Virus record (IMG/VR): IMGVR_UViG_3300033498_000048
Coordinates: 192,001 to 256,000 of that record
Source of the DNA: a virus
Taxonomy: Duplodnaviria; Caudoviricetes
Reading direction: 5' to 3' (one strand)
DNA: 64,000 nt
Each line of letters begins with the position of its first letter. Position 1 is the stretch's first letter. The notes below the pieces were generated by a model that saw nothing but the letters and a program-made list of their open reading frames with translations, did no database searches and was not told the origin of the DNA. A program made the translations under genes and the position numbers. Below, piece by piece: positions 377-63,469 of the stretch.

Positions 377-625
377 ATGAAACAAATAACAAAATATTTA
401 CAAGAAACATTACAATTAATTCCAGATTGGGATTGTAATGATTACTATTATGGTGACTCAAATATAGAAGTTTTACACGATAAGGTTTGGATATGTATTC
501 AGCATATATATGGAGCGTATGTTGTTTTGATAGCCCCAATTAATGAAGCAGCTATAAAGAAAACATTACAAACCGAGGAAGATGTTATTGAATTATTTAA
601 TTCTGTTTCACTAATCATTTCATAG
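377..625 (+). CDS. Hypothetical protein
   Basis: 82-aa ORF directly after the previous gene; no recognised motif. Confidence 0.55.
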   Translation: MKQITKYLQETLQLIPDWDCNDYYYGDSNIEVLHDKVWICIQHIYGAYVVLIAPINEAAIKKTLQTEEDVIELFNSVSLIIS

Positions 626-1301
626 TCCATATTGGGTCAGTAAACACTAAATGAATTTTAGAGCCATTGTATCGCATCATAATATTATTTCCATGTACAT
701 CTGGTTTAAACTTTTTGAACAATGGCTCTAACAATCTAAGTGCATTTTTTAATTTTGGGTCTGGAGTATTAGTCATCATTAATTGTCTATAATTTGAATC
801 TTTAAATCTATTCCACATTGTTTTTATTGGGTCATAATAATCTTCAAATTCAATATCAGTTGGAACCAACCCTAAAACTTGTAACATCTTCAAAACTCGT
901 TCTGGTTCAAAATCCTTAATACTGTTTAGTTTTTCCATTGAAATTAATAATATTTGTTTGCCCTTATATTGTTTATATTCTAAGTTTTGTTGTAGGAATA
1001 TAACATCTTCTGCTGATAATTCAGCACGGTCATATAGTTTAAATCCACGCACTATTGGAAAATATGGATTATCTTGATGGTTAGAACACAATCGTAGAAA
1101 CTGAATTGATGGGTCATTATCTCCAACAACATTAACAACTTTTAAAACCGAGCTAGGTTGCGACTTCATTGAATATACAGTTGATTGTATGCCTGTTCCT
1201 AATACTTCCATATTAGGATTATTGAAGACTCCTGTTATTGGCTTATTTGACTTTGGAATCTCAATTTTCTTTTCTTTTAAGAATGTGTTAAATGTTAGCA
1301 T
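615..1301 (-). CDS. Protein-kinase-like (Ser/Thr/Tyr fold) protein with internal-head-protein-like N-terminus
   Basis: Gly-rich loop LGTGIQSTVY, VLKVV (catalytic Lys), catalytic loop DVHGNNIM, and TDP in the DFG position. N-terminus MLTFNTFLKE. Confidence 0.75.
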   Translation of the reverse strand: MLTFNTFLKEKKIEIPKSNKPITGVFNNPNMEVLGTGIQSTVYSMKSQPSSVLKVVNVVGDNDPSIQFLRLCSNHQDNPYFPIVRGFKLYDRAELSAEDVIFLQQNLEYKQYKGKQILLISMEKLNSIKDFEPERVLKMLQVLGLVPTDIEFEDYYDPIKTMWNRFKDSNYRQLMMTNTPDPKLKNALRLLEPLFKKFKPDVHGNNIMMRYNGSKIHLVFTDPIWTMK

Positions 1302-1303
1302 AG

Positions 1304-1770
1304 TTAATTCGGTGTTAAAAAATAATATGTATCTTCATTGTCATCAACAACCTTATCTAATTTCAGTCCAGGTATAAATTTACTAGCACTATTTGACAAT
1401 CTACTATATAACTTTACCCGACTAGGTTCATTATTAGCAGCACATAATCCAACATGATTAACATTGCCATTAGATTTCAAATATTGTCTGATTGCATCAA
1501 ATACAATTGAAAATATGTAAATTGAATCTGTGCCTGATGGTAACAATTTTGCTGTGAATTTTCCATCTTTATCGGTTCTATCAAATGATATATGCAAGTA
1601 GTTGTATCTGAAACTTTTTAGATTTTTCATGGAAAATAAAAGATACTCGAATTGTGTATTCTCCATCATCGTAAGAATATAGGGTAGAATCGCTACTCTT
1701 AATTTCGATAGAAAATTTTATGTCATTTGAATTTCATTTCTTTCAAATATTCATTGAACGGTAATATCAA
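1304..1770 (-). pseudogene. EPSRVKLY-family paralog 1, broken by two frameshifts
   Basis: TTG at 1770 gives MILPFNEYLKEMKFK*; a second frame gives SNDIKFSIEIK...YTIRVSFIF; the track ORF 1304..1669 supplies the C-terminus with ANNEPSRVKLY. The pieces are collinear with paralog 2297..2827. CATAAATA late-promoter-like motif at 1783-1790. Confidence 0.6.
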
Positions 1771-1791
1771 CTCAAAAATAATTATTTATGT

Positions 1792-2280
1792 TTAGTTACA
1801 TTTCAACAGATAATATTCATTATAATTGAAAGTTTTTTCTACTGAGTTTAAGTTGCGACTAAATTTTGTGATGTTTTTATATATTCTGTCATATAATTTC
1901 ACCCTGGATGGTTCATCTGCATCAGCCGAAAAAACAATATAATCGTGGTTTTTTGATTCAATTGAAATTACTTGGGTAACTAATGAAAGGATAATATATT
2001 CGCTATTATTGCTGTTGGTGATTTCGTATTCACCATTTGTTGAAAATTCAACTCCACAAACACGTTCATTATCCGAAAATCGTTTATTAAATATGTCGTT
2101 AAGTAAATTTATATCCATGCCAAAAAACTTAACTTGGATTATGATATTCCCATTCAATGGAATATCATAATTTATATGTCCATACTTAACATATCTTTTA
2201 AACTTAAAACCATTCAGGTTGTATCTGGTTAATGTTACCTCGGAAATATAATCTTTAAACTTTAACATTTTATTGTCCAC
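1792..2280 (-). CDS. EPSRVKLY-family paralog 2
   Basis: Motif FSADADEPSRVKLYDR; N-terminus MLKFKDYISE. Confidence 0.75.
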   Translation of the reverse strand: MDNKMLKFKDYISEVTLTRYNLNGFKFKRYVKYGHINYDIPLNGNIIIQVKFFGMDINLLNDIFNKRFSDNERVCGVEFSTNGEYEITNSNNSEYIILSLVTQVISIESKNHDYIVFSADADEPSRVKLYDRIYKNITKFSRNLNSVEKTFNYNEYYLLKCN

Positions 2281-2296
2281 ATTTGTTTTACGAATG

Positions 2297-2827
2297 TTAC
2301 TTGGAAAGGAAATACCATTTAGCCGAGTGACTGTTAATTATTCTCTTATTAGTGAATCCAGTTAAATATTTTTCTGCCTGTTTAAAAAACCTATCATACA
2401 ATTTTACTCTGCTAGGTTCACTAAAGTCGGCTGAAAACTCAATAGTTTCAACTTGTGAATTACCTTTTAAGTATTGTCTTAATGCCTCTAGTACGACTGA
2501 AAATATTGTAATAGCAGCACCACCACTTGGAATAATACCCCACCCTTCTTGGTCATCTCGCTTAAACGTAACATCCACCATATTTTCAATGAAAACTGGT
2601 ACATCCACCATATTTTCAGTGGAAACTGGTGCATCCATATGATAATCTTTGTATTTTTTGAAAAAACGGAAGGTTATCTTTAGTGGTATATCACCAATGT
2701 AACATTTGTAATAGGTGTTATTACCTGCTGATGTAATGGTAAAATCCATTTCCACACCAAGACTGAACGACATTTCATCCAATTTGTGTTGTTGTGTTAA
2801 TATAAACTGATTAAATGTCTTCATCAT
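2297..2827 (-). CDS. EPSRVKLY-family paralog 3
   Basis: Motif FSADFSEPSRVKLYDR; N-terminus MMKTFNQFIL; TATAAATA at 2845-2852. Confidence 0.75.
   Translation of the reverse strand: MMKTFNQFILTQQHKLDEMSFSLGVEMDFTITSAGNNTYYKCYIGDIPLKITFRFFKKYKDYHMDAPVSTENMVDVPVFIENMVDVTFKRDDQEGWGIIPSGGAAITIFSVVLEALRQYLKGNSQVETIEFSADFSEPSRVKLYDRFFKQAEKYLTGFTNKRIINSHSAKWYFLSK
2571..2630. repeat. 30-bp in-frame tandem duplication (ENMVDV twice)
   Basis: acatccaccatattttcaatgaaaactggt followed by acatccaccatattttcagtggaaactggt. Confidence 0.9.
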
Positions 2828-2931
2828 ACTAACCTAAAAACTATTATTTATATTAAATCATTTCAATATTATGTTGACTTGAGTAGCTTGTAGGTGTAAA
2901 TTGCACACAATAACAACAAAGGGCTTTAATC

Positions 2932-3956: not shown

Positions 3957-5240
3957 TTAATCACATCTTGGAATCATACCTCTTATCCAATGTAACTCTG
4001 GTTCCACTTTATTCCTATCAATAGAATATGTTTTAATACCATCATTCCAAAATTCTTTTTTAGCAGCATTCGGTTTATTTTTCTTTAATCTTGGTTTCAT
4101 TCCTTTAATCCAATGTGATTCTGGTACGTCATCAACCGAAATAAAATAGTTTTTAATTCCATCGTTCCAATAAACCATTTCACCTGCTTTACGTTTTAAA
4201 TCCGAATTAACATTCCTTTCTAATCCACCCTCATTCCAACCATCTCCAGGATGTTCTTTAAATTTCTTAGTGATAATCCCATTATTGTAAGATTTTGACC
4301 CAATGTTAGCCTGTTTAGCTTTAATGGCATTCTCAATGTACATTCTAGTTAAAGCCTCAGTTTTTTTAGCTCCAAGGTTTAATAGCTTGACATCTGGATT
4401 ATCAGTAGTAGTCCAACCATAAGGTGTAATTCCATCTGGGTGATAATAAAATTGTTTTCCTGACATTGCTTGTGAGTGTTTCTTTTTTTCTATTACAAAT
4501 CGGTATTCACGGCTTTCTGAGTCCAAATATGGCATCCACCCTTGTGCTAAATATTCGTTTAAATCTATTTCATTAATTACAAACTTCTTATCAATATCAA
4601 GAAAGTACAATTTAATCTTTTTTAGATTATCTTTAGCGTTGCTCATTAATTGTTTGGATTCATTGGACATTTTATATCCCATATTATTTCCAACTAAATT
4701 TAGTTTTTTAATTAACGGACTATCTGTTTGTAAATAAAAACGATTACCAAGCTCGTCTTTATAAGTTGACTTATTCTTATGGAATTGTGAATGATATTTT
4801 TTTAGTGGAACTCTAATACTAGCTAGGTATCTTATTTGGACACAAGTAGGGATTAATCTATATGATAGTCTTGAATTGGTATTAGAATTGAAATTATATA
4901 GCATACAAAATAACGCATTAGTTTGTGAACCTTTATATGTTTTGTGTAACAATATGTGAGCTATAATGTGTTGTCTTGATGTTAGTTTAACTTTATTCCA
5001 ACTATGCAAATTGAAATTGGAATATTGTGGAAATAAGTCTTTTGCTTTAGGGCAAATGTGATGATATTCAACGTAATCATTTACATTTAACGATTCGTTA
5101 GCAATTTTACAATGATTTATTAATTTGATATATCTATTAAGATAATGTGAATTGTGTTTTTTTGAACTTAGAATGGTTTGTATGTCTTCCATTAATAACT
5201 TCCGTTTTAGTTTAGTGACTATACCGTAATTATAACACAA
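3957..5240 (-). CDS. Free-standing HNH homing endonuclease with C-terminal NUMOD-like repeats
   Basis: YVEYHHICPK...NKVKLTSRQHIIAHILL is an HNH-type motif. C-terminal repeats YNNG/WNDG...P...W..G occur three times. Start may be the ATG of MEDIQ. Confidence 0.8.
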   Translation of the reverse strand: MCYNYGIVTKLKRKLLMEDIQTILSSKKHNSHYLNRYIKLINHCKIANESLNVNDYVEYHHICPKAKDLFPQYSNFNLHSWNKVKLTSRQHIIAHILLHKTYKGSQTNALFCMLYNFNSNTNSRLSYRLIPTCVQIRYLASIRVPLKKYHSQFHKNKSTYKDELGNRFYLQTDSPLIKKLNLVGNNMGYKMSNESKQLMSNAKDNLKKIKLYFLDIDKKFVINEIDLNEYLAQGWMPYLDSESREYRFVIEKKKHSQAMSGKQFYYHPDGITPYGWTTTDNPDVKLLNLGAKKTEALTRMYIENAIKAKQANIGSKSYNNGIITKKFKEHPGDGWNEGGLERNVNSDLKRKAGEMVYWNDGIKNYFISVDDVPESHWIKGMKPRLKKNKPNAAKKEFWNDGIKTYSIDRNKVEPELHWIRGMIPRCD

Positions 5241-5303: not shown

Positions 5304-6485
5304 CTATAAAAGATTTGAAACTTTTATTTTCCGATAATATACGTTTTGATTAGCACTTAAGCTAGTGAATGGATTAGCGATAATCCCGTAACGGGTTTTG
5401 AAACCGATAGCAGGTTGGAACGAATCCACGCTAGTAGCTCTAACCATTTGCAATGGAACATAAGGACAATAGAACACACCTGCGTCATAAGCATTTGAGC
5501 CTTTATAGCCAACAACGTATGAATCTGAGCCTAAATATGGATCCACATATACTTTATACCGACCCATTTGACCAGCATAAGTAGTACCAGTAACATCGAC
5601 TTCTAGTGCAGTATTAGCTTGGAGGTTAGGGTTATAATCTAACAATCCAGCCATAACTAGAGCAGATGCAATATCAGCACCAGTAATTAAGATATTACCT
5701 TTACCACGTCTGGTTTCTGCTGCGATAGCATTAGCATCGCGTTCAATAGCAAACAATAGCCCTTTATACCGTTCTAAAGACCATCTACCATCTGAATCAG
5801 CTTGGAGGTTAAATGTACCAGGAACACCTGTCCATTGCGCTCCAGGTTTAGCAACAGAATAGATTTTACGGATAACTTCTCTGTTATTTTCAGCGATAAT
5901 TTCAGTGGATAAAATATTGCTTAATTCATTTTCGGCATCTAAACCATGTAAAGCTCTTAAATCTTGTGCTAACTCCATTGAGTAGTCAGCTCTTAATTGT
6001 CTAGTTTGTGCTGTAACCGAGGTTTTCTCGATTGTCATTGACATACTATTCCAAGCATCTGCTTCGCCATCTGCTGTAACTTTACCAGTTCCTGTTGAAT
6101 ACAATGGGTCGTATGGGTCTGTACCAACTTGTGTACCTGCTCCAGAGAAAGCAGAATCGGTTTCTTGGAACAATGCTTCAGCACCAGTTTTATTTGTGTA
6201 TCTAGCTCGCATAGCAAACACTAAACCAGTTGGACCAGTCATTGGTTGTACACCACAAACATCATAAGCAATTAGTTTTGGAGCCATCCGTCTTACCAAT
6301 GAGATAAGAATAGGATTCCATTGGTCTACGTTTCCAGTGTTAGATACGTTTGACACTTCATTCAAAAATCGTTCTTGATTTTCTAATAATTGTGCTGTTA
6401 CTTTTCTTCTATGTTCATCTAAAATAGGAGCAGCCTTTTCAGTGTTTAAAAGTCTATCCCATTTTTCAACTAATTGTGAACTCAT
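5304..6485 (-). CDS. gp23: Major capsid protein (T4 gp23 family)
   Basis: LISLVRR..P.LIAYDVCGVQPMTGPTGLVFAMR; YCPYVPLQM; FQPAIGFKTRYG. Confidence 0.98.
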   Translation of the reverse strand: MSSQLVEKWDRLLNTEKAAPILDEHRRKVTAQLLENQERFLNEVSNVSNTGNVDQWNPILISLVRRMAPKLIAYDVCGVQPMTGPTGLVFAMRARYTNKTGAEALFQETDSAFSGAGTQVGTDPYDPLYSTGTGKVTADGEADAWNSMSMTIEKTSVTAQTRQLRADYSMELAQDLRALHGLDAENELSNILSTEIIAENNREVIRKIYSVAKPGAQWTGVPGTFNLQADSDGRWSLERYKGLLFAIERDANAIAAETRRGKGNILITGADIASALVMAGLLDYNPNLQANTALEVDVTGTTYAGQMGRYKVYVDPYLGSDSYVVGYKGSNAYDAGVFYCPYVPLQMVRATSVDSFQPAIGFKTRYGIIANPFTSLSANQNVYYRKIKVSNLL

Positions 6486-6525: not shown

Positions 6526-6543
6526 ATTTAATTGAATTTGGAT

Positions 6544-7578
6544 TTACTTAAAACAATTAATATATCTGTTCATTTTGTCATGTTCCGAACCAGTGTTATT
6601 GGTAGGTGTAGTATTTACTTCATCAAACAAAGCCATTTTGATTATAGTTTCTGTATTGGATTCATTGATTAAACGTTTGTTAGTGTTAGTGTTAGCTTTG
6701 GCAACTGTTCTTGTTGGAGGTGAAACAACTTCTTCAATCATCAATTCAACACCACGCTTATATTCAGAATCATTTGAGAATCTCATATTTTCAACTAGAC
6801 TTTCAATTTTTTCTTTTTGTGTGTCAGTTAAATTTCGAGTTGTTTGTTCCAAAACCAACTTTCTATTTAATTCAGAGTTTTTACGTTTTATATTTGCCAT
6901 TTCAAGTAATACTTTATTATGCTCTGTAATACTTTCACCTAATTTGTGTTTTACATCATTGACAGTATTATCTGGATTCAATTGAAATAAATGTCTTGAA
7001 AAGGTTTCTTGTATATCAGCAAATACAGATTTCATATTTCTATAATCAACTGATTCAACCATAGCTTCCATGTTTTCAGAAATGAAATGAGAAACAACAT
7101 AATCCAAATATTGGTCAACTTCGTCAGTCAAGCTTTCAAGTACATATTCACCATAAGATTCAGCAGCTTCTGATAACTTTTGTTTTTCAGCTTCATATTC
7201 AGAACTTAAGTATTGTCCATACGCTTCTGCCTTTTCTGATATTGTTTTCTCAACATATTTTCCATAAGCATTTGCTTGTTCGGTCAATTTAGTGTGTTCC
7301 GATAACGCATAATCACTATATTCAGAAATATTGCTTTCTAAACCATTTAACTTGGAATCATATCCATTTTTAACATAATCTCCATAGGATTCACCTATTT
7401 TCTTTAATCGTTCAACTTCCTCTGTTAAATTGTGTATAGTTTCCTTATAAATGGATTGTTTTTCGGCAACACGTTCAGTTATAGCGGATTCTACCATTAA
7501 CCTTAAATTAACAAGAACATCATCTGAAAGATTGTTCTCACCTAAAAGTTGAGATACTTGTTCCTTTGTTATACTCAT
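6544..7578 (-). CDS. gp22: Prohead core scaffold protein (gp22)
   Basis: Lies between gp21 and gp23; acidic coiled coil; VDQYLDYVV and LTDTQKEKI.SLVE motifs. Confidence 0.85.
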   Translation of the reverse strand: MSITKEQVSQLLGENNLSDDVLVNLRLMVESAITERVAEKQSIYKETIHNLTEEVERLKKIGESYGDYVKNGYDSKLNGLESNISEYSDYALSEHTKLTEQANAYGKYVEKTISEKAEAYGQYLSSEYEAEKQKLSEAAESYGEYVLESLTDEVDQYLDYVVSHFISENMEAMVESVDYRNMKSVFADIQETFSRHLFQLNPDNTVNDVKHKLGESITEHNKVLLEMANIKRKNSELNRKLVLEQTTRNLTDTQKEKIESLVENMRFSNDSEYKRGVELMIEEVVSPPTRTVAKANTNTNKRLINESNTETIIKMALFDEVNTTPTNNTGSEHDKMNRYINCFK

Positions 7579-7589
7579 TTACATACCCC

Positions 7590-8249
7590 TTATTTAATAT
7601 TTGTTAAAACATAATCAAAGATTTGTCTTAAACCTTCGGTGTTTAATTGATTATTTCTACTCATGGTATTTATAGTTTTTTTGATTTCAGATTCGTGTTC
7701 TATTAACGAACCATTATTCCAATACCATTCTTTATTTTCCATTAGACCAGAAACTAAAGCGTCTGGAGCAGATGGGTCTGAAACAATATCAGCTGCTGTA
7801 ACTAGGAAAAAATCATCACATACAACTTTAACACCATTTTTTTCAGATAATGAACCCAAGCCTCTTGATGATACTCCAATTTGTACATTATCTTTCAGCA
7901 ATCCTTGAACAATTAAACCATTGGGTGTATCTAAAATTAAAGCTTTCCCTATATAATTATCACCATCTTCTATTAAACTAATAATTTTGTGTGATGCGTT
8001 TTTATAAGAAACAACTGGGGAATCAGGATGTTCCAATTCCCCACAAGCTCTATTGGTATTTACAAACTCTTTGATGTATCTCTGAACTTCATTTTTCATT
8101 ATATCTTTTGGATATAATCTACCATTCCGATTTTTAATATTAGATTGTAAGAATATTCCCCCAATATAATATCGTTTTAATCCAACTTCATTTTCTTCAA
8201 TTAGTATGTTAGTTGAGTCTAATTCAGTAGATTCTCTTAGTAATTTCAT
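7590..8249 (-). CDS. gp21: Prohead protease (gp21)
   Basis: GIFLQSNIKNRNGRLYP; ACGELEHP; GVSSRGLGS; DIVSDPSAPDA. Confidence 0.97.
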   Translation of the reverse strand: MKLLRESTELDSTNILIEENEVGLKRYYIGGIFLQSNIKNRNGRLYPKDIMKNEVQRYIKEFVNTNRACGELEHPDSPVVSYKNASHKIISLIEDGDNYIGKALILDTPNGLIVQGLLKDNVQIGVSSRGLGSLSEKNGVKVVCDDFFLVTAADIVSDPSAPDALVSGLMENKEWYWNNGSLIEHESEIKKTINTMSRNNQLNTEGLRQIFDYVLTNIK

Positions 8250-8258
8250 GTAAATTCC

Positions 8259-9068
8259 TTAACGGTACAATCCCATTTTTGCGCCCTTTTTACGAGTTTT
8301 TGATGCTTTCATAGCGGAACGATGTTTCTCAGATGAACTTTTGCTAGCAGCCAATCTTTGCATTTTTTTAGATGCTAATCTGGAAGCCATTTTATCTGCT
8401 CCAGTTTTAGTTGCTAACTTGCCATTTACGACCTTTTGGTTTTTACCGTGTTCTAATCGTTTTATGACCTTTCCACCTGCACCTAAATGACGACTAATCT
8501 TTTCGTCTAGGTGATAAGATTCACCCATCCAATCTTTCCATTCCATATTATCGACTTGTGCGCCCATATCAAAAGAGCCATCATCGTATGGAAACAAATC
8601 TACTGTGTAATTATCATATTCAGTTTCATCTATAACTCCAGTTATATCTGGGTTTAATTCAATGTCAAAAGTAAATGTATAATTACCATCATCATCAATG
8701 TCATCAATATCGACTTCAGTTGAATATCCTTTAAGTCTATCATTATAAGTTGCTCTCAATTCATAATCATAAACATCATCATCGGAATCAAGATAATCTG
8801 CAAAATCAAAAGCAGCTTGTTTATTCCTCAAATGTAATTCAATTATTCCATCTACATATGAACCAGAATCTGAACCGAAACCTCTAGCTGCAACTTGTAT
8901 TCTAGTAACAACTTCCATTTCTTCATCGGTATAAACTGACCCCTCTGTTATTGTTCGAGCTTTGCGAACCAATCTTTTTTCCAATTCACCTCGGATAGTG
9001 CTGTTAAATTCAATAGAGTTATTTTCTCTTAAATGTTTTTTAACATAATCTTTAAATTGTAGTAACAT
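8259..9068 (-). CDS. Probable prohead core protein (gp67/gp68 position)
   Basis: Lies between gp20 and gp21; acidic middle and Lys/Arg-rich tail; own TATAAATA at 9100-9107. Confidence 0.55.
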   Translation of the reverse strand: MLLQFKDYVKKHLRENNSIEFNSTIRGELEKRLVRKARTITEGSVYTDEEMEVVTRIQVAARGFGSDSGSYVDGIIELHLRNKQAAFDFADYLDSDDDVYDYELRATYNDRLKGYSTEVDIDDIDDDGNYTFTFDIELNPDITGVIDETEYDNYTVDLFPYDDGSFDMGAQVDNMEWKDWMGESYHLDEKISRHLGAGGKVIKRLEHGKNQKVVNGKLATKTGADKMASRLASKKMQRLAASKSSSEKHRSAMKASKTRKKGAKMGLYR

Positions 9069-9110
9069 ATTGTCTCCAGTGTAATATTAATCATTAATAT
9101 ATTTATAAAA

Positions 9111-10610
9111 TTATAATTCAGCTTCAGCAGCAATTGCATCAGCTTCTTCTTTTTGTTTGGTCATGTCTTCAATTTGTTTATCTGTGTATTTTAAAACTGT
9201 TTGTAATATCCATTTATAATCAAAATACTTACCAACGTATGGATCCATACTATCAATCAATCCAACTCGATTTGCTAATATCTCTGCTTCTTTATATTCA
9301 ACAAAATTATTATCTTCAGCATATATCCACTGAATTTGATTCTTCATAGTATTCCAATCATTTTCAGTTATTATATTTTTTAGTAACAATTGGCTTTTTA
9401 ATAAATCACCAATGATTCCATTAACAAACCGTTGTCTCAATCTATCAATAGACTTTTTAAATCTATATTCATCCCTATCAATTTCAACTGAACGACCAAA
9501 CATAAATGGGATTGCGCCATCCCTAGAAAAACGATTAAACGGAACACTTAACGATTTAAAAAACTTATCTTTAAAATACTCGACATCTTCTGTTACTCCA
9601 AGGTTTTCGCCTCCAGGTAATGTTTCGATTTCAGTTCCCTTACCATCACGTCTGGGAAGCCAAAAGTCTTCAACCATGCTTAATATATTTTTTCTATCAA
9701 CTATGTTTCCAGTTTTACTATCATAAACTAACTTGGTTTTAAAACGATTCATCATATCGTGAACGTATTGCTCGGCTTTGTTTTTTGGTAAATTACCAAC
9801 ATCAACGTATATAATTCTACGTTCTGGAGCGCGAGCTACTCGATATATAACAAGACTATCTTCCATTAGCTTTAAATTATTATATGGACCAATTGCTTTA
9901 TATAAGTATCCGATTACATCTCTTGTTTTTTTATTATACAGACCACTATCACAATATGACATGGAATCTGCTGATATTTTTAATCCAGAACCCAATTGAA
10001 CTTTCGATAATGTGTTAATATCATCATACCTTTCAACATAAACAAAATACTCAATTATTTTGTTAATATCTACAGTACCATTTGCGTCTGGTTGTGGAAC
10101 TTCCCTAATCTTTTTAATTTTTAATGGGTCTATTGGAATTATCTTTCTTATTCCAGATTTAGGGTTATCTTGGTCAAGTATTTTATAGATAAACAATCTA
10201 CCATCAATATACCAATCCATGAACAAATTAATTCCAGTATTATGAAAATCAATTATATTATATAAATTAACAAATTCAGTTTTTATTTTATCTTGTATAG
10301 TGGTTGATATGTCACAATCTGGTAAGAACATAATATCAAATGCTCGTTTTCCAACAACATCAAAGATAAACACTTCATTTCTTATTTCAGTTAATGCTAA
10401 ATCGACATCAGCCATTCTAGCCATATTGCGATAAGTGTTAATTAATTCGACTTCTGACTCTGGTATAGTAACTAAATTATAATCTTGAGCTACTATACCA
10501 TTCCCAGCTGCTCCAACCATTTCAGTGGACGGGTCATTTTCTAATTGAAATGTTTTTAATATTTCTTTTTTTGTATCTTTTTTATTAAATACCCAACCAA
10601 ACAATTCCAT
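9111..10610 (-). CDS. gp20: Portal protein (gp20)
   Basis: LMEDSLVIYRVARAPERRIIYVDVGNLPKNKAEQY; EDFWLPRRDGKGTEIETLPGGENLG. Confidence 0.98.
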   Translation of the reverse strand: MELFGWVFNKKDTKKEILKTFQLENDPSTEMVGAAGNGIVAQDYNLVTIPESEVELINTYRNMARMADVDLALTEIRNEVFIFDVVGKRAFDIMFLPDCDISTTIQDKIKTEFVNLYNIIDFHNTGINLFMDWYIDGRLFIYKILDQDNPKSGIRKIIPIDPLKIKKIREVPQPDANGTVDINKIIEYFVYVERYDDINTLSKVQLGSGLKISADSMSYCDSGLYNKKTRDVIGYLYKAIGPYNNLKLMEDSLVIYRVARAPERRIIYVDVGNLPKNKAEQYVHDMMNRFKTKLVYDSKTGNIVDRKNILSMVEDFWLPRRDGKGTEIETLPGGENLGVTEDVEYFKDKFFKSLSVPFNRFSRDGAIPFMFGRSVEIDRDEYRFKKSIDRLRQRFVNGIIGDLLKSQLLLKNIITENDWNTMKNQIQWIYAEDNNFVEYKEAEILANRVGLIDSMDPYVGKYFDYKWILQTVLKYTDKQIEDMTKQKEEADAIAAEAEL

Positions 10611-24468: not shown

Positions 24469-24950
24469 ATGATGAAAACGTTTAAGCAATTTCTAGGTGA
24501 AGCAACAACAAGTTCATTCGGTATTTTTGACACAAAATACCTGGGTGTCAACGATGCTGAAAAAACAATTAGTGCAAACTATCCTGATAACCTTAACATA
24601 TAAAAGGTATCGAATTTTTCGATACGATTTATATGTCTGATATTATTAGAAAGGCTAGTGCTAAGTTGGACAAGTCAGGTCAAGAATCATATTTAGGTTA
24701 TTTACCCAAAGAAGATTTGTTCATATCAGGGTGGGACACATGGTCAGATGATGAGGAAGATGATTATAGAGATTTTAACCCCACCGAATCATTTAGTGGC
24801 AACTTAGCATTTGTTAAGGTAAATGATAAAGGTGTTGCCAAAGTTATTAATATCTCTGGTGACGCTGGTGATATGATGTACGGGAGTGGTGGTTCACTAA
24901 GTAAATTAAAGAAAGAATATCCTAACTTAGTTAATATTAGATTAGATTAA
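24469..24950 (+). pseudogene. Frameshifted internal-head-protein-like gene, paralog of 22..373
   Basis: ATG 24469 gives MMKTFKQFLGE...NYPDNLNI* (stop at 24603). Removing one C and one A in aaccttaacatataaaaggt restores PDN-LTYKGIEFFDTIY and joins the track ORF 24633..24950. Confidence 0.65.
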
Positions 24951-25624: not shown

Positions 25625-26203
25625 GTGAACACTAGAACTAGAATACAAACATCGAATAACTCATCAATCAATATCCACAAACAATTTTTAAATAATGATA
25701 CTGTTACATTTCTAATAAAGTATTATAAAAAATTACCATACTTCCAAGATAATTACAATTTTAATGGAAACATTGTTCAATCGCCAAGGTTGATTTGTTA
25801 TATGGGAGTTAAAAACTATTTTTACAGTGGAATTAACCATGTTCCAATTCCATTCGATAACATCACTAAAACACTATTGGATTTAATTGTGAAGTTATAT
25901 CCATACCAATATAACGGGTGTTTGATTAATTATTATAGAAATGGTAACGATTCTATTGGAATGCACACGGATAATGAATCGTGTATTGATTTATCCGTTC
26001 CAATTATAAATCTATCATTAGGTTCAAATCGAACACTAATTGTAAAGGATATTAAAACAAATGAAAAACACAAAATTCTAATGGAATCTGGTTCATTAAT
26101 TGGTATGATTGGTGATTTTCAACAAGATTGCATACACGGAATTGCAAAAGAAAAGAATATATTAACTCCTAGAATATCTATAACATTTAGAAGATTTAAA
26201 TGA
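25625..26203 (+). CDS. alkB: AlkB-family (ALKBH2/3-like) 2OG-Fe(II) dioxygenase
   Basis: PRLICYMG; CLINYYRNGNDSIGMHTD; NLSLG; IHGIAK; RISITFR. Confidence 0.9.
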   Translation: MNTRTRIQTSNNSSINIHKQFLNNDTVTFLIKYYKKLPYFQDNYNFNGNIVQSPRLICYMGVKNYFYSGINHVPIPFDNITKTLLDLIVKLYPYQYNGCLINYYRNGNDSIGMHTDNESCIDLSVPIINLSLGSNRTLIVKDIKTNEKHKILMESGSLIGMIGDFQQDCIHGIAKEKNILTPRISITFRRFK

Positions 26204-28309: not shown

Positions 28310-28380
28310 TCCGTGTTTGATATATAATTGTGAAATGGAGACATGATGTCTCCATTTCACATATGGGGAGAATAAGAAAG

Positions 28381-35935: not shown

Positions 35936-36682
35936 CTATCCCACAAACCAATCTATGGGATATTGATAAGTGTTAATCAATTCATCTTCTAATACTTCAA
36001 GGTCAGATAACGCATCATCATACATTTGTCGTCCATTTAATGTCATACCAGATGGTAATTGGAATCCATCAAACTTAATCATATTTTGACCCCATTGTCG
36101 TTTGAATAATGCTATTACATATTTTTTTAACCACATATCATTCCAAACATTATCATAGTCGTCTGGATCCACAATTACTGTACATTCAATTGCAATATAT
36201 TGACCCAATCCAATTAAACTCCAATCAGCTTCTATAAACAATCTATTCATGTGTCTATTGAATCTAACTGGTTTCTCATAATTAAATAGCCAGTTTATTG
36301 TAGATAGGTATTCCATATTAACCATAAAGCTACCAAGCCCACCTCCATTTGTTGGCGAAGCCATTTGACTAATAACATCACTCATATAAGCTGTATATTG
36401 TAAATTGTTATTACTAAAACCACTACCCCCGTATGGAAATACCCTTAATATAGATAATACGTTATCTGAAATTGGAATATATTTGTTTGCTAAATCATTA
36501 TTGGAAATTTGATGTACAATGTAACTTTTTGCTGAACCATCTGAATGAAATTCCCAATACTTTTGTAAAGCCTCATCAATTCTATCATCAATTTGTTCAT
36601 CAGCAATGTTTATTTGTATAACGGGTGCGCCCAATGAACGCAACGCATAATCTACTAAGTCTTGTTTTGTACTAATTGCCAT
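35936..36682 (-). CDS. gp13: Neck protein (gp13)
   Basis: LRSLGAPVIQINIADEQIDDRIDEALQ; WLKKY..ALFKRQWGQNMIKF; LPSGMTLNG. Confidence 0.95.
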   Translation of the reverse strand: MAISTKQDLVDYALRSLGAPVIQINIADEQIDDRIDEALQKYWEFHSDGSAKSYIVHQISNNDLANKYIPISDNVLSILRVFPYGGSGFSNNNLQYTAYMSDVISQMASPTNGGGLGSFMVNMEYLSTINWLFNYEKPVRFNRHMNRLFIEADWSLIGLGQYIAIECTVIVDPDDYDNVWNDMWLKKYVIALFKRQWGQNMIKFDGFQLPSGMTLNGRQMYDDALSDLEVLEDELINTYQYPIDWFVG

Positions 36683-36684: not shown

Positions 36685-37092
36685 TTATCGTACTCCGAAG
36701 TCGTAAACTTGAATTTTACCTTTTTTGTTATAACCAACTTGATTACCATCAATAAATTTTACCCAACTTGGTAATTTATCTGAATCAACATTAATATCGA
36801 CCTTGACCATCAATAATACTGGAAAGTTTTTAATTAATACGATTTTAGCCGAAGCATAATCAGTCCAATCGGGTTTAAATCTAACCGAACTCTCGTATTG
36901 ATTATCATCAATACCATCATAATTGCGAGGAACTTTAAACACAAAGTTTTTAGACTTAAATGTACACCTATTCCTACCACAATCTGGTTCACCATACTTC
37001 TTAGATAACATTGATATTATTTCTTGAACCATAGGATAATCACTGTTGAAATATTCGTCTGTAATATACTCTGCAAAACTTTTTATGGTCAT
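36685..37092 (-). CDS. Minimal kinase-like protein with internal-head-like N-terminus
   Basis: GRNRCTF...VFKVP...NQYE; IDGNQVG...YDFG. N-terminus MTIKSFAEYITDE. Confidence 0.55.
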   Translation of the reverse strand: MTIKSFAEYITDEYFNSDYPMVQEIISMLSKKYGEPDCGRNRCTFKSKNFVFKVPRNYDGIDDNQYESSVRFKPDWTDYASAKIVLIKNFPVLLMVKVDINVDSDKLPSWVKFIDGNQVGYNKKGKIQVYDFGVR

Positions 37093-56446: not shown

Positions 56447-56620
56447 ATGGAAGGACAATGGCTTGGAGGTAAGGGTTCAACAACTAGACCTATGCAAGTA
56501 AACCGACAACAGTTTGAAGATAACTGGAACAAGATTTTCAACAAGAAACTGGATAATGCGAATAAATTAATTCCAGTAAATGAAACCATAGTGGAGATTG
56601 TAACAAATGACACAGTATAA
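56447..56620 (+). CDS. Small conserved T4-like phage protein (57 aa); absent from the ORF track
   Basis: MEGQWLGGKGSTTRPMQVNRQQFEDNWNKIF...; AAGGGG RBS; TATAAATA at 56403-56410. Confidence 0.75.
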   Translation: MEGQWLGGKGSTTRPMQVNRQQFEDNWNKIFNKKLDNANKLIPVNETIVEIVTNDTV

Positions 56621-56858
56621 AACATTTAAATCCTTTTGTGAGTCTGTAACAGCGTTGCCTATCTATTTTCTATGTGAAAAGTGTAAAGAATCAGGTATTC
56701 AGGAGTCTGATGAATTTGATATGGAGACTAAAACCTCTAGGCAAGAATATATTACAAAGGGACAAGATAAAATATTTTTAAAGAAAGTTTGTTATGAATG
56801 CAAATCTGAAAGTGGTGTAGACGAGAATTATTTAAAAGGGATACAATATAGTGGTTAA
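56607..56858 (+). CDS. Hypothetical protein with two CxxC pairs
   Basis: CEKC...CYEC; N-terminus MTQYKTFKSFCE. Confidence 0.6.
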   Translation: MTQYKTFKSFCESVTALPIYFLCEKCKESGIQESDEFDMETKTSRQEYITKGQDKIFLKKVCYECKSESGVDENYLKGIQYSG

Positions 56859-57453
56859 TGTTAAAAACATTAGGGTAAAATCATTTAATGAATATTTAAT
56901 GGAAAACAGTCCAATAATTAGAACTGAGTTAGACAAAGAAATACATTCTAACACAGCAACAAGCCAATTAAATGATATTCCAATTCCATCAATGAAAGAT
57001 GCAAAAAGTGGAGATTATAAAAAAAGCAGAATTAAAATAAATGGACTAATCATTGATATTGAAAATCCGTATGGTTCAGTTAGAAAAGGCATTAGCTCAA
57101 ATGGCGAATCGTGGGAAATTACGTTATCAGATAATTATGGTGAAATTAAGGGGTATGATGCTGCTGATGGAGATTATTTAGATATTTTCATTCGTCCACA
57201 TATGACACAAAAACAAGCAGATAATTTAAATGTCATTTATGTGATAGACCAATTGGATCCAACTACACATGGATTTGATGAACATAAAGTCGTATTTGGG
57301 TATGAAACAATCGAGGAATCTAAACGTGCATATCTAGCCAATTATAAATCAAATTGGACTGGATTAGGATATATCACTCCATTAACTATGACGATGTTTA
57401 AATATTGGATTAAAAATGAAGACTTAACACAACCATTAGTTTGGGGTAAATAA
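56851..57453 (+). CDS. Inorganic-pyrophosphatase-fold domain protein of the type seen in phage polyvalent proteins
   Basis: IDIENPYGSVRKG; YGEIKG...ADGDYLDIFI; VIDQ; FDEHKVVFGY; AYLANY. Confidence 0.8.
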   Translation: MVNVKNIRVKSFNEYLMENSPIIRTELDKEIHSNTATSQLNDIPIPSMKDAKSGDYKKSRIKINGLIIDIENPYGSVRKGISSNGESWEITLSDNYGEIKGYDAADGDYLDIFIRPHMTQKQADNLNVIYVIDQLDPTTHGFDEHKVVFGYETIEESKRAYLANYKSNWTGLGYITPLTMTMFKYWIKNEDLTQPLVWGK

Positions 57454-57834
57454 ATGTTTAAATCATTCAATGACTTCATACGATTAGAAGATACGAGCTT
57501 TCATTCAATAATGGCAAGGAACATAAAACCCACCAAACAAAAAACAGTTGATTTTGATGATATTAGCACTGGTTCAACCGTTAGATTAGTTGATATTGGA
57601 AATTACTTTTTATTAACTGGATTAGAAACACCTCCAGAAAATAGGGGTAAAGGTGGTGCTAAAAAAGTTATGCAACAGGCAATTCAATATGCGATTGATA
57701 ACGAAAAGAACATAGAATTATCGGTTATTCCTGACGATGATACAGACACTGAAACCTTAATAAAATTGTATTCTAGTTTTGGATTTAGAAAAACAGGACA
57801 ACCACATAACCATATGCGTTATATTACAATATGA
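57454..57834 (+). CDS. GNAT-family acetyltransferase
   Basis: LETPPENRGKGGAKKVM (acetyl-CoA motif A); LIKLYSSFGF. Confidence 0.85.
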   Translation: MFKSFNDFIRLEDTSFHSIMARNIKPTKQKTVDFDDISTGSTVRLVDIGNYFLLTGLETPPENRGKGGAKKVMQQAIQYAIDNEKNIELSVIPDDDTDTETLIKLYSSFGFRKTGQPHNHMRYITI

Positions 57835-58247
57835 AATCATTTAAAGAATATACAAACAATCCGATATTATATCACGGAACAACATCAAACTTCGATTTTG
57901 ATAAAGGTTTAATGGCAGGTGGAAATAAACAAACAACGTCCAACTTTAATGCCAGTAATGGTGAAATTTGGCTAACTTCAAATAGGGAAGTTGCGTTTGA
58001 GTATGCTATGATTGCATGGAAAACACTACAAAACTTTTCATTAACGCCGATTTTGATACAAGTTGATATTGATGTTAGCTTATCAGCAGACCAACCTATA
58101 GAACATGACCAAGTAGCGTTTTGTTTTGAATTAGATGTTATTCCAAAAAGTAAACTAAAGATGGTAAAGTTGACTCAAGCAGAATTAGCTAATTTCAAAA
58201 AACGATATGACCGAGAACTTAAAAATGGAAAATCAAAATTCAATTGA
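57831..58247 (+). CDS. ADP-ribosyltransferase-like protein
   Basis: ILYHGTTS; IWLTSNREVAFEYA; ILIQVDI. Confidence 0.6.
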   Translation: MKSFKEYTNNPILYHGTTSNFDFDKGLMAGGNKQTTSNFNASNGEIWLTSNREVAFEYAMIAWKTLQNFSLTPILIQVDIDVSLSADQPIEHDQVAFCFELDVIPKSKLKMVKLTQAELANFKKRYDRELKNGKSKFN

Positions 58248-58819: not shown

Positions 58820-60019
58820 TTAACTATTTAACTTTTGAAAAAATTGCAACAAATCTTCTTGTAATACTGAACATGGAATAGGATATTCAATATTATCAAG
58901 AAAATTGAGTTTAATATCTTGATTACAATCTGGTATAACTAAATCGAATAGTTTTCCAGCCAATACATAATCGAAATATTTAAATTCCAATGTATAATCA
59001 ATCCTACCTTTACGCAATAGGGCATCATCTAACTTAGTGTGGAAGTTGCTAGTCATTATAACTATAACATCTTCTTTACTATACAATCCGTCCAACACAT
59101 TCAATAGTGTAGATAAACTAACTGAATTGGTTAGACCAGCATTAGTTGAATTAATGTCCCGTTTTAATACACTATCACACACGGCATCAATGTCTTCTAA
59201 CAAAACAATTGAATCAGATGGAATATCAATAAACGCTGTAATAATTGACGAGTCAGTTAATGTTTTCAAATTGATTGAATAAATTGATTTTTTATATAAT
59301 GATGCTAATGCTAACACTAAACTCGTTTTACCAGTTCCAGGTGGACCAGTAAACAAATATCCCCTTTTATATAAAATTCCTCTATCTAAGTACCATTGTT
59401 TATTAATGTAGAAGTGTTCTATATCATCAAGCAACGATTGCTTATCATTATCTGGTAATACAATTGATTTAATATTGCGATAGTTCCTAGATGCAATTAT
59501 TCGCCATTCAGTAACATATGTGTGTATTGAAACTTGATTTCGACTTTTAGTTAAAACAGCAGCAACGAAATCATCAACTATATTTGGATCCCTACGAAAT
59601 AGAAAATACATTGTTATATCTTCAGGAGCTTTAAACATTCCAGTAGTTCGATTCGCCAATACTTTATAAAACAAAACTGGACGGTGTTTATACCAAAACC
59701 AATGTAACCCAGTTGAAAATGTAATATTACCAACATTTCCATGATAACCTGAAACATAATAATCATACAATTGAAGCCTTCTTGTATTAGATAGTAATCT
59801 ATTTTTTTCAATCCACAAACAAATATCATCAAACATATCGGTATTATTCCTAACCAACACTTCAACAGATAAAAAGTAAATTACCATTCGTTTTATTTGT
59901 GTTGGAATACCTTTTAACACATAAATCGCATATCCACATAGTGTAGCAACAACAGCACCAGAACTAAACATATTTGTTTGTACTTGATAGACTATCCATT
60001 CATAAACTTGTATCACCAT
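58820..60019 (-). CDS. BCS1-like AAA ATPase
   Basis: N-terminal TM, GLHWFWYKHRP (BCS1_N-like), WYLDRGILYKRGYLFTGPPGTGKTS, LLEDIDA, LSTLLNVLDG, LLRKGRID. Confidence 0.9.
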   Translation of the reverse strand: MVIQVYEWIVYQVQTNMFSSGAVVATLCGYAIYVLKGIPTQIKRMVIYFLSVEVLVRNNTDMFDDICLWIEKNRLLSNTRRLQLYDYYVSGYHGNVGNITFSTGLHWFWYKHRPVLFYKVLANRTTGMFKAPEDITMYFLFRRDPNIVDDFVAAVLTKSRNQVSIHTYVTEWRIIASRNYRNIKSIVLPDNDKQSLLDDIEHFYINKQWYLDRGILYKRGYLFTGPPGTGKTSLVLALASLYKKSIYSINLKTLTDSSIITAFIDIPSDSIVLLEDIDAVCDSVLKRDINSTNAGLTNSVSLSTLLNVLDGLYSKEDVIVIMTSNFHTKLDDALLRKGRIDYTLEFKYFDYVLAGKLFDLVIPDCNQDIKLNFLDNIEYPIPCSVLQEDLLQFFQKLNS

Positions 60020-60573: not shown

Positions 60574-60591
60574 ATAATCTCCTTATAATTG

Positions 60592-60659: not shown

Positions 60660-60660
60660 T

Positions 60661-61794
60661 TTACTTAATTAGTCCACGAATTAAAGATTCAAACTTACGA
60701 ATTTCTAGCTTTCTCAAATAAGCTGGAATATCTGTAATAGCACCCTTTTGATATGCAAAAACTATTCCAGATAAGTTTTGATTATCTTTCATTTTTAAGC
60801 CAAGTTCTTTTCCAGTTAATGTTTTAGTGTATTCAATAAGCGTGTCTAGTTTCTGTTGTAATCGCTTGTACGCTGTTTTTATGGTTGAGTGTAGCACTGT
60901 ATGCTCTTTGTACTTATCGAGCGATAGGAACGATTTGTGTGAGTTTGTACGCACTATTTCACACATTCTACGGAAATTGTCTTTATCTATTTGTGATTTT
61001 CGTTTGATGTATTCCTCATTTGATATGAATTTAGAAGTCCGCAACAGATTAATATTGTCGTATTGTGGACTCTTTATTTTCAACCGATTAAAATTAGAAT
61101 CACACGCAACATAACCTTCCATCTTAATTGGGTCAACCTCATTTAATTCCAATAAAATATCATTCAAGGTTGATTTTTTACCAGTTGCACATTCCCATGA
61201 AATACACAATTCACGTTTAGCACGTTCAATTGACACCTCTTTAAAAGTTTTAAGATTGCGAACACCAATAAGGGTAATGTTAGGTTCTGATACTTTAACC
61301 AAAAAGTCTTCTGATGGACGTTCCATTTCAAACATATAACAATGGTCTGTAAACTTTGGTAATTCGTATTTTTTCAACTTCCAAACTTTCCAGAAATAAT
61401 CATTCATTGTAATATCTAAACCCTTAATTTGTCCAGACGCATCAGGCATACCTTTAGATGCTACATTCCATTTTCCATCATACCAATACAATGTCATCAA
61501 TGAACCATCTAACTTTTTCCAATATGTACAATCATCAAAATCGAAAGTTTGTTTTCCCATTGGATTATAATCACTAAACCTAGTAAACGGAAATGATACA
61601 ACCTTCATTGTATTAGTATCAATTATTAATCCCCTACAATTATTAGTTATGTCATTCTTTGGTGTTTCCAATTGGTCATACATCAATTGTACTAAATTTG
61701 GATATAATATATGTCTACGCATTTTTAATGAATATGTAGCAACTAATGTTTCCAATGAATTTTTAATAATGTAATCAATAACGTTTAACATCAT
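60661..61794 (-). CDS. rnlA: RNA ligase 1 (T4 RnlA family)
   Basis: CRGLIID; FPFTRF; KKLDGSL (adenylation motif I); YMFEM; EGYV; RLKIKSPQY. Confidence 0.9.
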   Translation of the reverse strand: MMLNVIDYIIKNSLETLVATYSLKMRRHILYPNLVQLMYDQLETPKNDITNNCRGLIIDTNTMKVVSFPFTRFSDYNPMGKQTFDFDDCTYWKKLDGSLMTLYWYDGKWNVASKGMPDASGQIKGLDITMNDYFWKVWKLKKYELPKFTDHCYMFEMERPSEDFLVKVSEPNITLIGVRNLKTFKEVSIERAKRELCISWECATGKKSTLNDILLELNEVDPIKMEGYVACDSNFNRLKIKSPQYDNINLLRTSKFISNEEYIKRKSQIDKDNFRRMCEIVRTNSHKSFLSLDKYKEHTVLHSTIKTAYKRLQQKLDTLIEYTKTLTGKELGLKMKDNQNLSGIVFAYQKGAITDIPAYLRKLEIRKFESLIRGLIK

Positions 61795-61966
61795 AACCTC
61801 GTTTAGTTTGTTTAGGAAGGAACAGCACCTAAGCTATTACAGTCTTTGTAAAATATCTCAATGCGTTTTTTATTTGCATAATCATCTGCAACGTATAATA
61901 ACAATACTACACACAAATTAGTTCTACCAACTCTTGTTTTCTATATACCACATAACACCTCTTTAA

Positions 61967-62191
61967 TTAAAGTCTTCTAAAGTTGGAACATTTAACTGCG
62001 TGTGTTCCATCCAAGTAATGCTTTAGAACTGGCTTCATTTTTTTAAATTCTAAATGACTACAATTCACAATACTATCAATACAATTACAACACATTTCAC
62101 CATCTGGAAAATACTCAGGTAGTGTTCTATCAATGTAATTACCATCTCCAATTGTTTGATTACCCTCAAACACAAATTTAAGTTTTCTCAT
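61967..62191 (-). CDS. Small Cys-rich hypothetical protein
   Basis: 74 aa, CCNC..C..C, downstream of a consensus sigma70 promoter. Confidence 0.55.
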   Translation of the reverse strand: MRKLKFVFEGNQTIGDGNYIDRTLPEYFPDGEMCCNCIDSIVNCSHLEFKKMKPVLKHYLDGTHAVKCSNFRRL

Positions 62192-62220
62192 AATGTAATT
62201 CCACGAATATCAATTTAGTA

Positions 62221-62249
62221 ATTATAAATGTACACACTAACAATGTCAA
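62221..62249 (-). promoter_or_regulatory. Consensus sigma70 promoter abutting the first repeat unit
   Basis: Minus strand TTGACA-17-TATAAT. Confidence 0.8.
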
Positions 62250-62824
62250 TCAATAAGTTAGCATTAAGTAATTAATAATAGCGTCCAAGTGCTATCTTAT
62301 TGATATTATTAGTGTATGACTACTCCAACTAAATCAACGACTTAGCACTTGCATAGAGTATTAGTTATATAACCGTTCTAAATGCTAACCTATTGATTTT
62401 GTTACATATCACCTAAAATATTAAGAATCAACAAGTTAGCACTTGTAGCCATTAGGTAATTAATAACACCATCCAAGTGCTAAGTCATTGATTTTGTATA
62501 ATTGACAAGAATGTATGGATTTAACCGTAAATCAACAAGATAGCACTTGCAGCTTGGTATTAATTATATAACTGTTGCAAGTGCTAACTTATTGATTTTG
62601 TTATTGGCTATTAAAACAATTAAGAATCAAGTGGTTAGCACCTATTGGTATCAAGTGGTTACTATTGTCAATAAATTGAGTAAAATGACCTAGTAATTAC
62701 AGTTACACTACAAACAATAGGTTAGCACTTGCAGTGTGTTATTAATTACTTAATGGCTACAAGTGCTAACTTATTGTTTTATATACAACACATAAACACA
62801 CCTAAATCAATGACTTAGCACTTG
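62248..62824. repeat. Array of inverted-repeat units: five complete, plus two left arms
   Basis: Units at 62248-62305, 62332-62398, 62426-62493, 62530-62597 and 62712-62779; lone arms at about 62626 and 62805-62824. Confidence 0.9.
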
Positions 62825-62889
62825 GACGGATTAGCTGAAATTGGTAAACAACATAAATACCATTTTAGTTAAATTAGGGGATACAGATT

Positions 62890-63469
62890 ATGTTACTAAG
62901 TTTTAATGAATATTTGTTATCTGAGGCATACATTAACCTGATAGGTGATGACGCTAAAAAACAAAACTACGTTGATGCTGTTTGGAATATGTTACAAATA
63001 TCTTATGAGAGGATTGGTGGAATACATGATTATGGGTTTAAAGATAAACAGAATATGATTACCAATATAAATTTTTGGAAATAGCTACTAAAGATGGTAA
63101 ACCTGTAGCAGTTGCAATGTATAAAGATTCTGGAGGCAGAAAAAATTAGTTGCGTATGGAACTGATAAGTCCACAGTAGGAAAAGCAAAGATAGTTGATA
63201 TTATTAAGGCAGATATGACCAGAAGTTATATGGAACTATCTGGTGCAACTGTGACAATATTAATGAATAACATTGAGTGGAATCAATTGAAAGATTATAC
63301 ATTCACTCCAGAGCAAGCTGAAAAATTGCTAGGAAAGGATATTACACCAATAAGTCAACTACCATCAATTCCATAAGATGCGAAATTAACGTTGGCATTG
63401 TTTGAATATGGGTACATAAGAAAGATTGGTAGTGATTTACATTTTAAAGTTATGTTTGGTAAAATCTAG
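62890..63469 (+). pseudogene. Internal-head-like gene broken by two frameshifts and an in-frame TAA
   Basis: MLLSFNEYLLSE...NFWK, then IATKDGKPVAVAMYKDSGGRK, then LVAYGTDK...PSIP*DAKL...VMFGKI*. The shifts fall in A-runs. CATAAATA at 62852-62859. Confidence 0.65.

Follow-up and report, generated by a model that had tools for sequence, protein, structure and literature searches.

Why would a phage place nearly the same short stretch of residues at the start of proteins as different as a protein kinase, a predicted ADP-ribosyltransferase (ART) and an InPase-domain protein? The question is raised by a window of 64,000 nucleotides, bases 192,001-256,000 of the 305,782-bp virus record IMGVR_UViG_3300033498_000048 (Caudoviricetes), which has terminal repeats. 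A preliminary description had proposed that about 14 open reading frames (ORFs) in this window begin with a leader like that of the internal proteins of phage T4, and that the enzymes so marked are packaged into the head and injected with the DNA. The first 10 residues of T4 IPIII are enough for head loading, with residues 4 and 7 chiefly setting targeting and residues 8 and 10 setting processing, and the gp21 protease cuts after Glu (PMC9026906). This capsid-targeting sequence (CTS) is sufficient to load foreign proteins into the head (PMC9026906; PMC3012670), is alone conserved among otherwise diverse T-even internal proteins (PMC3012670), and has been proposed as a possible general protein-loading route in T4-like phages (PMC9026906). 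We find that a T4-style leader on a modular set of enzymes is supported by analogy with T4: the genes for gp21, gp22, gp23 and the portal lie in the window, the positions mapped in T4 are conserved, and orthologues keep the leader. We consider it likely that the phage uses the T4 capsid-targeting system on a far larger set of proteins, encoded by about 23 genes genome-wide, 14 of which lie in the window.

The leader is enriched at protein starts and conserved as peptide

The 14 N-termini of the preliminary description all translate as written. Every one carries [FY]-x-x-[FY] near its start, at positions matching T4 residues 4 and 7, and in 11 of the 14 the second aromatic is followed directly by an aliphatic residue, any residue and Glu, corresponding to T4 residues 8 and 10. 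The four conserved positions (aromatic, aromatic, aliphatic, Glu) are thus those mapped in T4 IPIII. Read from NC_000866, the T4 leaders are MKTYQEFIAE for IPII and IPIII and MKTFKEFTSTTTPVSTITE (MKTFKEFTS...) for IPI; the leaders starting at 2827 and 9068 resemble the latter, with L-x-E placed later, at residues 16-18 and 13-15. At 56607 and 56851 the motif lies 3 and 8 residues further in than in the other leaders.

Enrichment was measured over the 467 ORFs of at least 50 amino acids in the whole 305,782-bp genome, against 1,000 shuffles of residues 2-20. A strict motif, M-x(1-4)-[FY]-x-x-[FY]-[ILVMCF]-x(1-2)-E, is present at 12 ORF starts compared to 0.60 +/- 0.78 in the shuffles (maximum 4), and at just 1 of 1,417 internal Met-anchored positions; F-x-x-[FY]-[ILVMC] with F at residues 3-7 is observed 18 times, with 3.1 expected (Poisson p = 5.5e-9). 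The preliminary description had named shuffled N-termini as the check on its motif, and the strict form comes through this comparison clearly, whereas the looser M-x(1-8)-F-x-x-[FY] is enriched only about 2-fold (33 versus 15.9 +/- 3.8, maximum 30). The codons at the conserved positions are mixed (TTT/TTC/TAT/TAC for the aromatics, TTA/CTA/TTG/ATT/ATA/GTT for the aliphatic residue and GAA/GAG for Glu), and it is therefore the peptide that is conserved.

Counting alternative starts and short ORFs, about 23 genes genome-wide, or roughly 5% of the total, carry the leader, which takes such forms as MKTFKQFLGE, MKTFGQFLSE, MLSYQNYIRE, MLSFKQYLAE and MFKTFKSFIME. It is borne by distinct, unrelated families and folds, and BLASTP searches with T4 IPI, IPII and IPIII find no homologues of the mature proteins in this phage. 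Shared ancestry as the source of the common leader was considered and rejected, since paralogy among the tagged proteins is confined to one trio (1304/1792/2297) and three pairs, each made up of a tagged gene and a paralogue at another genome location. The genome also contains a natural copy whose leader has degenerated: the minus-strand genes at genome coordinates 277133-277609 and 278293-278604 are paralogues of 53% identity, the first starting MKTFGQFLSE and the second reading ...QLIESLGYMKTYIKTG at the aligned place, with no aromatic pair.

The window encodes a T4-type head module

A T4-type head module, all on the minus strand of the window, supplies the partners that such a leader would require by analogy with T4. 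It comprises the portal protein gp20 (9111-10610; 37% identity to T4 gp20, E = 3e-105), a gene for a 269-residue protein discussed below, the gp21 prohead serine protease of family S77 (7590-8249; PF03420, 131 bits, above the cut-off), a gp22-type head scaffolding core protein (6544-7578; BLASTP to T4 gp22, 3.5e-10; phrog_237, 3.4e-24) and the major capsid protein gp23 (5304-6485; PF07068, 425 bits; 33% identity to T4 gp23). The protease shares 41% identity with T4 gp21, including the segments GELxHP (here GELEHP) and GVSSRGLGS, which we take to contain the catalytic His and Ser. In gp23, the predicted maturation site falls between FLNE and VSN, at the position where T4 has FLTE and AEIGG. With these gp21 motifs kept and FLNE at the gp23 site, the cleavage specificity is likely retained. 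The gp22-type protein would be the expected docking partner of the leaders, and gp21 the protease expected to remove them.

BLASTP of T4 gp24 against the genome matches gp23 only, and a separate vertex protein is not detected by this search. A 427-residue HNH homing endonuclease (3957-5240, minus strand; phrog_655, phrog_12434) adjoins gp23 downstream; segD occupies a similar spot in T4. Positions 33905-36682 are occupied by the neck and tail genes gp13 (35936-36682; phrog_211), gp14 and gp15. The G+C content of the genome is about 31%, and no tRNA genes are found in the 64-kb window.

The nearest cultured T4-like phages by gp23, at 59-62% identity, are Acidovorax ACP17 and the Stenotrophomonas Smp14 group, and a gp23 scan of IMG/VR gives 80 best loci whose identity never exceeds 58%, which places this phage, judged by its genes, as a lone, very large and distant member of the T4 superfamily. 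Megablast with 20 kb of the window finds no close cultured-phage relative. The head-module flanks of the 80 gp23 loci, about 800 kb in all, yield just two to three plausible leader genes, and hence no orthologue test.

Orthologues in other phages keep the leader

Orthologues that do bear on conservation come from individual tagged families, and these retain the leader at 31-40% sequence divergence. In metagenomic phages, those of the InPase-domain protein (60-67% identity) have MKQTFKEYFDE or MNQTFEEYLAE at the N-terminus or, in one case, an internal MKIKTFKSFVSE at the likely true start. The orthologue of 56607-56858 in a metagenomic contig (L092) starts MRFRTFQAFNE, and that of 57831-58247, at 69% identity, starts MMKFTQFLSE; by comparison, the copy here (MKSFKEYTNN) appears to have lost the cleavage part and kept the aromatics. 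At 50% identity, the family of the predicted ART at 35438-35932 comprises 104 clusters. Of 103 homologue clusters, 93 have a short leader directly ahead of the domain; hydrophobic-x-Glu is present in the leader of 78 of these, and in 52 it stands exactly 7 residues before an invariant Tyr-His.

Tagged proteins of the neck locus and the 56607-58247 run

One cargo candidate is a protein of 164 residues (35438-35932, minus strand; leader MYNTFENFLIEE) encoded between gp13 and gp14. Its AlphaFold2 (AF2) model has a predicted local distance difference test score (pLDDT) of 89.9, and a Foldseek search of the PDB gives Tpt1/KptA (E = 1.2e-4) and DarT as top matches, with TM 0.42-0.51. A fold search was needed here, as the family profile matches PDB sequences weakly (E = 0.12 to Tpt1). 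Family invariants Y24, H25, S50 and E101 fall in the motifs Y-H, S-T-T and E-x-E, and we firmly assign this protein, from its model, a predicted ART fold closest to Tpt1/KptA and DarT. The leader forms a separate, lower-confidence helix in the model (residues 5-13), with the domain starting at residue 22; this short amphipathic helix is neither a signal peptide nor a transmembrane segment.

A second tagged gene, upstream of gp13 (36685-37092, minus strand; 135 residues; leader MTIKSFAEYITDE), has an Atlas structure with TM 0.53-0.61 to APH and protein kinases, which makes a small kinase-like fold a lead only. The same neck locus is occupied in a 167,449-bp T4-like ENA contig (L094), where five consecutive leader genes lie between gp14 and gp15 (6881-10510), starting in order MKTFKCFLNE, MKRFKEFLIE, MKRFKEYLME, MKRFKEYLSLNE and MKTFKQFILE, the last of these being a homologue of 35438-35932. 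The neck locus appears to be a hot spot for cassettes of tagged cargo.

Four further tagged genes run together on the plus strand. The first (56607-56858; 83 residues; leader MTQYKTFKSFCE) encodes a Cys-rich, zinc-ribbon-like protein that matches BSD2_CRD below the cut-off. The next (56851-57453; 200 residues; leader MVNVKNIRVKSFNEYLME) bears out the PPase-like protein of the preliminary description, its sequence firmly identifying a polyvalent-protein-type InPase domain (PF18823, 143 bits with a cut-off of 26.8, E = 5e-42). The GNAT of that description is likewise supported, at threshold, as a probable acetyltransferase at 57454-57834 (126 residues; leader MFKSFNDFIRLE), by Acetyltransf_1 at 20.9 versus 20.7 bits together with eight other GNAT models and phrog_1249 (1.3e-6). 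The last (57831-58247; 138 residues; MKSFKEYTNN) is a possible ART, with ART-PolyVal matched below the cut-off at E = 0.0056. Its single-sequence AF2 model is unusable (pLDDT 43), and hhalign against the 35438-35932 family profile aligns the N-terminus alone, with probability 1.8%; the ART assignment therefore stays weak, a lead only. Of the ART-like proteins named in the preliminary description, the one in the neck locus is thus borne out by its fold and this one is weakly indicated.

An AAA-type ATPase (58820-60019, minus strand; phrog_7485), whose orthologue in contig L092 carries BCS1_N and AAA, and a homologue of the RNA ligase/tail-fibre attachment catalyst (60661-61794, minus strand; phrog_562) sit between this array and the tagged gene at 62890-63084, in an order common to that contig. 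The latter gene (plus strand; leader MLLSFNEYLLSE) encodes a small protein of 64 residues with no family match in Pfam and phrog searches; of 20 tagged proteins compared with Pfam, 9 have no match.

Other tagged genes in the window and beyond

A tagged T7 gp0.7-like protein kinase of 228 residues (615-1301, minus strand; MLTFNTFLKE) is supported by phrog_15752 (E = 5.5e-8), so that the earlier claim of kinases holds for this gene, that at 36685-37092 being the structural lead noted above. A full-length paralogue of 34% identity lies outside the window at genome 281376-282059 and starts MLSYQNYIRE. Three minus-strand genes follow as tandem paralogues. In the broken gene at 1304-1770 (MILPFNEYLKE), a TTG start and a 15-codon head precede two frame changes, and the body (1304-1669) is a DUF6934-type paralogue of 2297-2827 (E = 5e-22); the gene at 1792-2268 (158 residues; MLKFKDYISE) is another paralogue of 2297-2827. 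The latter (176 residues) has a long, IPI-like leader, MMKTFNQFILTQQHKLDE, an Atlas feature score of 0.95 with 210 features in common with DUF6934 clusters, and TM of about 0.5 to GNATs, so that DUF6934 with a GNAT-like fold is supported for it and its two paralogues.

The 269-residue tagged protein of the head module (8259-9068, minus strand; leader MLLQFKDYVKKHLRE; phrog_33445) is encoded between portal and protease. In the T4 gene order, genes 67 and 68 occupy the equivalent spot, and because of this location it is probably a prohead core protein, a likelier role than the host-modifying enzyme that the preliminary description implied.

Two tagged genes lie on the plus strand further along. 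That at 24469-24950 (MMKTFKQFLGE) has no match in Pfam or phrog family searches and consists of two ORFs, of 44 and 105 residues, that a -1 frame change near 24597-24600 separates. Programmed frameshifting was considered and rejected, as the overlap window (AAC ATA) does not form a slippery heptamer; the break more probably reflects a pseudogene or an assembly indel. The second (26717-28309; 530 residues; leader MSFSTFKGFLKE) has a C-terminal P-loop NTPase (phrog_1250, 1.8e-26), a better name than the AAA ATPase of the preliminary description, AAA_16 and DUF927 matching weakly and below the cut-off. Around these two genes, also on the plus strand, are a 965-residue Toprim-containing protein (20199-23096), a 2OG-Fe(II) oxygenase (25625-26203; PF13532) and an N6/N4 DNA methylase (28330-29097; PF01555).

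Outside the window, a tagged 2H phosphoesterase of 206 residues (genome 1068-1688, plus strand; MFKTFKSFIME) has two HxT motifs (H83 and H161) and matches Pfam Acb1 (anti-CBASS) at 29 bits with a cut-off of 27; it may be a pre-packaged cyclic-nucleotide-degrading enzyme. The next gene (genome 1698-2195) is also tagged, with MLSYTEFILE. At genome 54315-54479 (plus strand), a 54-residue ORF reading MLSFKQYLAE...FVVGDIHG ends after the tagged N-terminal part of a NinI-like metallophosphatase; the following 1 kb shows no continuation in any of its three forward frames. The breaks at 1770, 24469 and genome 54315 could be either pseudogenes or assembly errors.

Late-promoter-like motifs precede several tagged genes

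The motifs noted earlier upstream of several tagged genes are confirmed. TATAAATA, which we take to be the T4 late-promoter consensus, lies 25-41 nt before 2827 (-25), 9068 (-39) and 26717 (-41), and CATAAATA precedes 1770 (-20) and 62890 (-38). Within 100 nt upstream, TATAAATA is found for 6 of 20 tagged genes versus 18 of 447 others (Fisher p = 2.3e-4); some of the other tagged genes lie inside structural operons. Genome-wide, TATAAATA occurs 45 times on both strands, versus about 137 expected by our own estimate from base composition, a rarity that fits selection against stray late promoters.

Proposed mechanism and alternative explanations

By analogy with IPIII, the two aromatic residues of the leader would dock a tagged protein onto the gp22-based scaffolding core during prohead assembly. 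The gp21 serine protease would then cut after the leader Glu, and the freed mature protein would remain in the head with the DNA and enter the host alongside it. With a near copy of the T4 load-then-cut peptide on about 23 proteins, most of which are unrelated and several of which are enzymes, the phage probably injects a ready-made protein kit along with its DNA.

Several observations weigh against this interpretation. All its functional steps rest on analogy with T4, whose gp23 is only 33% identical, and the phage is an uncultured one of metagenomic origin. Three of the 14 window leaders (2827, 9068 and 57831) lack [ILV]-x-E directly after the aromatic pair, and 57831 lacks it anywhere in the protein. 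The offset of the leader from Met is variable, with the first aromatic at residues 4-7 and once at 12, which is outside the T4 data. Many predicted mature products are acidic or neutral (isoelectric point, pI, of 4-7), unlike the basic internal proteins of T4; only the 6 of 20 tagged genes mentioned above have a TATAAATA of their own; and with two broken tagged genes in the window (1770 and 24469) and one at genome 54315, not all are functional.

These points leave room for other accounts, of which the strongest accepts that the leader loads and is cleaved and holds that most tagged proteins help to assemble the head or condense the DNA, as gp67, gp68 and IPIII do. The gene at 8259-9068 lies exactly at the position of T4 core genes 67 and 68, T4 IPIII mutants have head-assembly defects (PMC9026906), and several tagged proteins are small and in no enzyme family, yet at least six tagged proteins have enzyme domains and catalytic motifs (InPase, the H/S/ExE of the ART, the two HxT of the 2H protein, kinase, GNAT and P-loop), and InPase and 2H occur in proteins for which injection is predicted (PMC5512222). 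We judge an assembly role for most of the set to be unlikely. The leader might instead be a propeptide or sorting tag for another purpose, such as zymogen-like inactivation or delivery to membrane, tail or baseplate, with no head packaging. Two tagged genes among the neck genes and others near tail genes would suit such a destination, and inactivity of a toxic ART or kinase in the producing cell would make sense, although the position-for-position match is to a T4 sequence that is sufficient for head loading of foreign proteins (PMC9026906; PMC3012670), the amphipathic helix described above does not resemble a signal peptide or transmembrane segment, and the neck-gene location is common to the leader-gene array of contig L094. 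This second account is very improbable.

The explanation to which we attach the least weight, and hardly any, would have the N-terminus unrelated to the capsid, as an RNA- or codon-level feature of translation start in an AT-rich genome or as compositional chance. It could draw on the low G+C content, on leaders rich in residues with AT-rich codons (K, F, N, Y and I) and on the merely 2-fold excess of the loose motif, but composition-preserving shuffles give 0.6 strict matches compared to 12, synonymous and near-synonymous codons are used at the conserved positions, the amino-acid pattern is kept in the orthologues of other phages while other residues change, and about 95% of the genes of the same genome lack the motif. 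Packaging by a T4-type system thus stays our preferred interpretation. If the proteins are packaged, injected internal proteins would not be confined to a few small inhibitors of T-even coliphages, and T4-type phages would have a general route for bringing in dozens of ready-made enzymes that act ahead of all phage gene expression. In metagenomes, the leader could then be used as a simple marker for counter-defence or takeover proteins of the first minute of infection; examples here are the ART family, of which more than 100 clusters are known, and the 2H/Acb1-like enzyme, both tagged. The T4 packaging tag would also seem to work across very distant relatives, which would be useful for protein delivery by engineered phages.

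Comparison with known systems

The closest parallel is the T4 system itself, from which the mechanism, by analogy, is already known. Both put a leader of about 10 residues, with aromatics three apart and then aliphatic-x-Glu, on proteins that are not otherwise related, and both have the S77 protease, gp22 scaffold and gp23 shell, with the T4-type late-promoter consensus upstream. This phage differs in having about 23 tagged genes versus three in T4, in a cargo that is mostly enzymes and often acidic where that of T4 is small and basic, in the variable offset of the leader from Met, and in its distance from T4 (gp23 identity as above).

Enzymatic cargo has a precedent in T4 Alt, a head-packaged, gp21-processed ADP-ribosyltransferase that is injected with the DNA and belongs, like the predicted enzyme here, to the ART superfamily. 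Unlike Alt, the ART-fold protein is small (164 residues), is nearest to the nucleic-acid-modifying Tpt1/KptA and DarT, and has a canonical IP-type leader, where Alt has MELITELFDE, together with H...S-T-T...E-x-E motifs; BLASTP of T4 Alt against the phage ORFs gives no match at E <= 0.01. The giant phages related to phiKZ and SPN3US also carry many head-internal proteins, whose delivery to the host follows cleavage after Glu by a prohead protease related to that of T4. To our knowledge, no IP-type N-terminal CTS consensus has been reported for their ejection proteins, and the context there is a different capsid lineage, in contrast to the bona fide T4 head module here.

Virion packaging and early delivery are also predicted for phage polyvalent proteins, e.g., those of the P1 DarB type (Iyer, Burroughs, Anantharaman and Aravind 2017; PMC5512222), which include InPase and 2H among their domains, with a GNAT noted beside InPase (PMC5512222). 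The cargo here shares with them the InPase domain (a strong match), the 2H phosphoesterase, a GNAT adjacent to InPase and perhaps ART-PolyVal. A single polyvalent polypeptide combines 2-15 domains, whereas each tagged protein here has one recognisable domain and is encoded by a separate small gene with its own leader, as in the run of Cys-rich protein, InPase, GNAT and possible ART at 56607-58247. A broader view, which we offer tentatively and hold slightly short of evenly balanced, is that the T4 leader is an ancient, portable address label across the T4 superfamily, seen here at an extreme as a pre-loaded arsenal of about 20 separately tagged single-domain effectors, in effect unbundled polyvalent proteins: a nucleic-acid-type ART, a kinase, InPase, GNAT and a 2H/Acb1-like phosphoesterase that could destroy cyclic-nucleotide immune signals as soon as it reaches the host, with cassettes exchanged at hot spots such as the gp13-gp15 neck locus. 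What appears new, relative to the systems above, is the size of the set, at about 5% of genes, its mainly enzymatic predicted cargo, and the conservation of the four mapped residues so far from T4.

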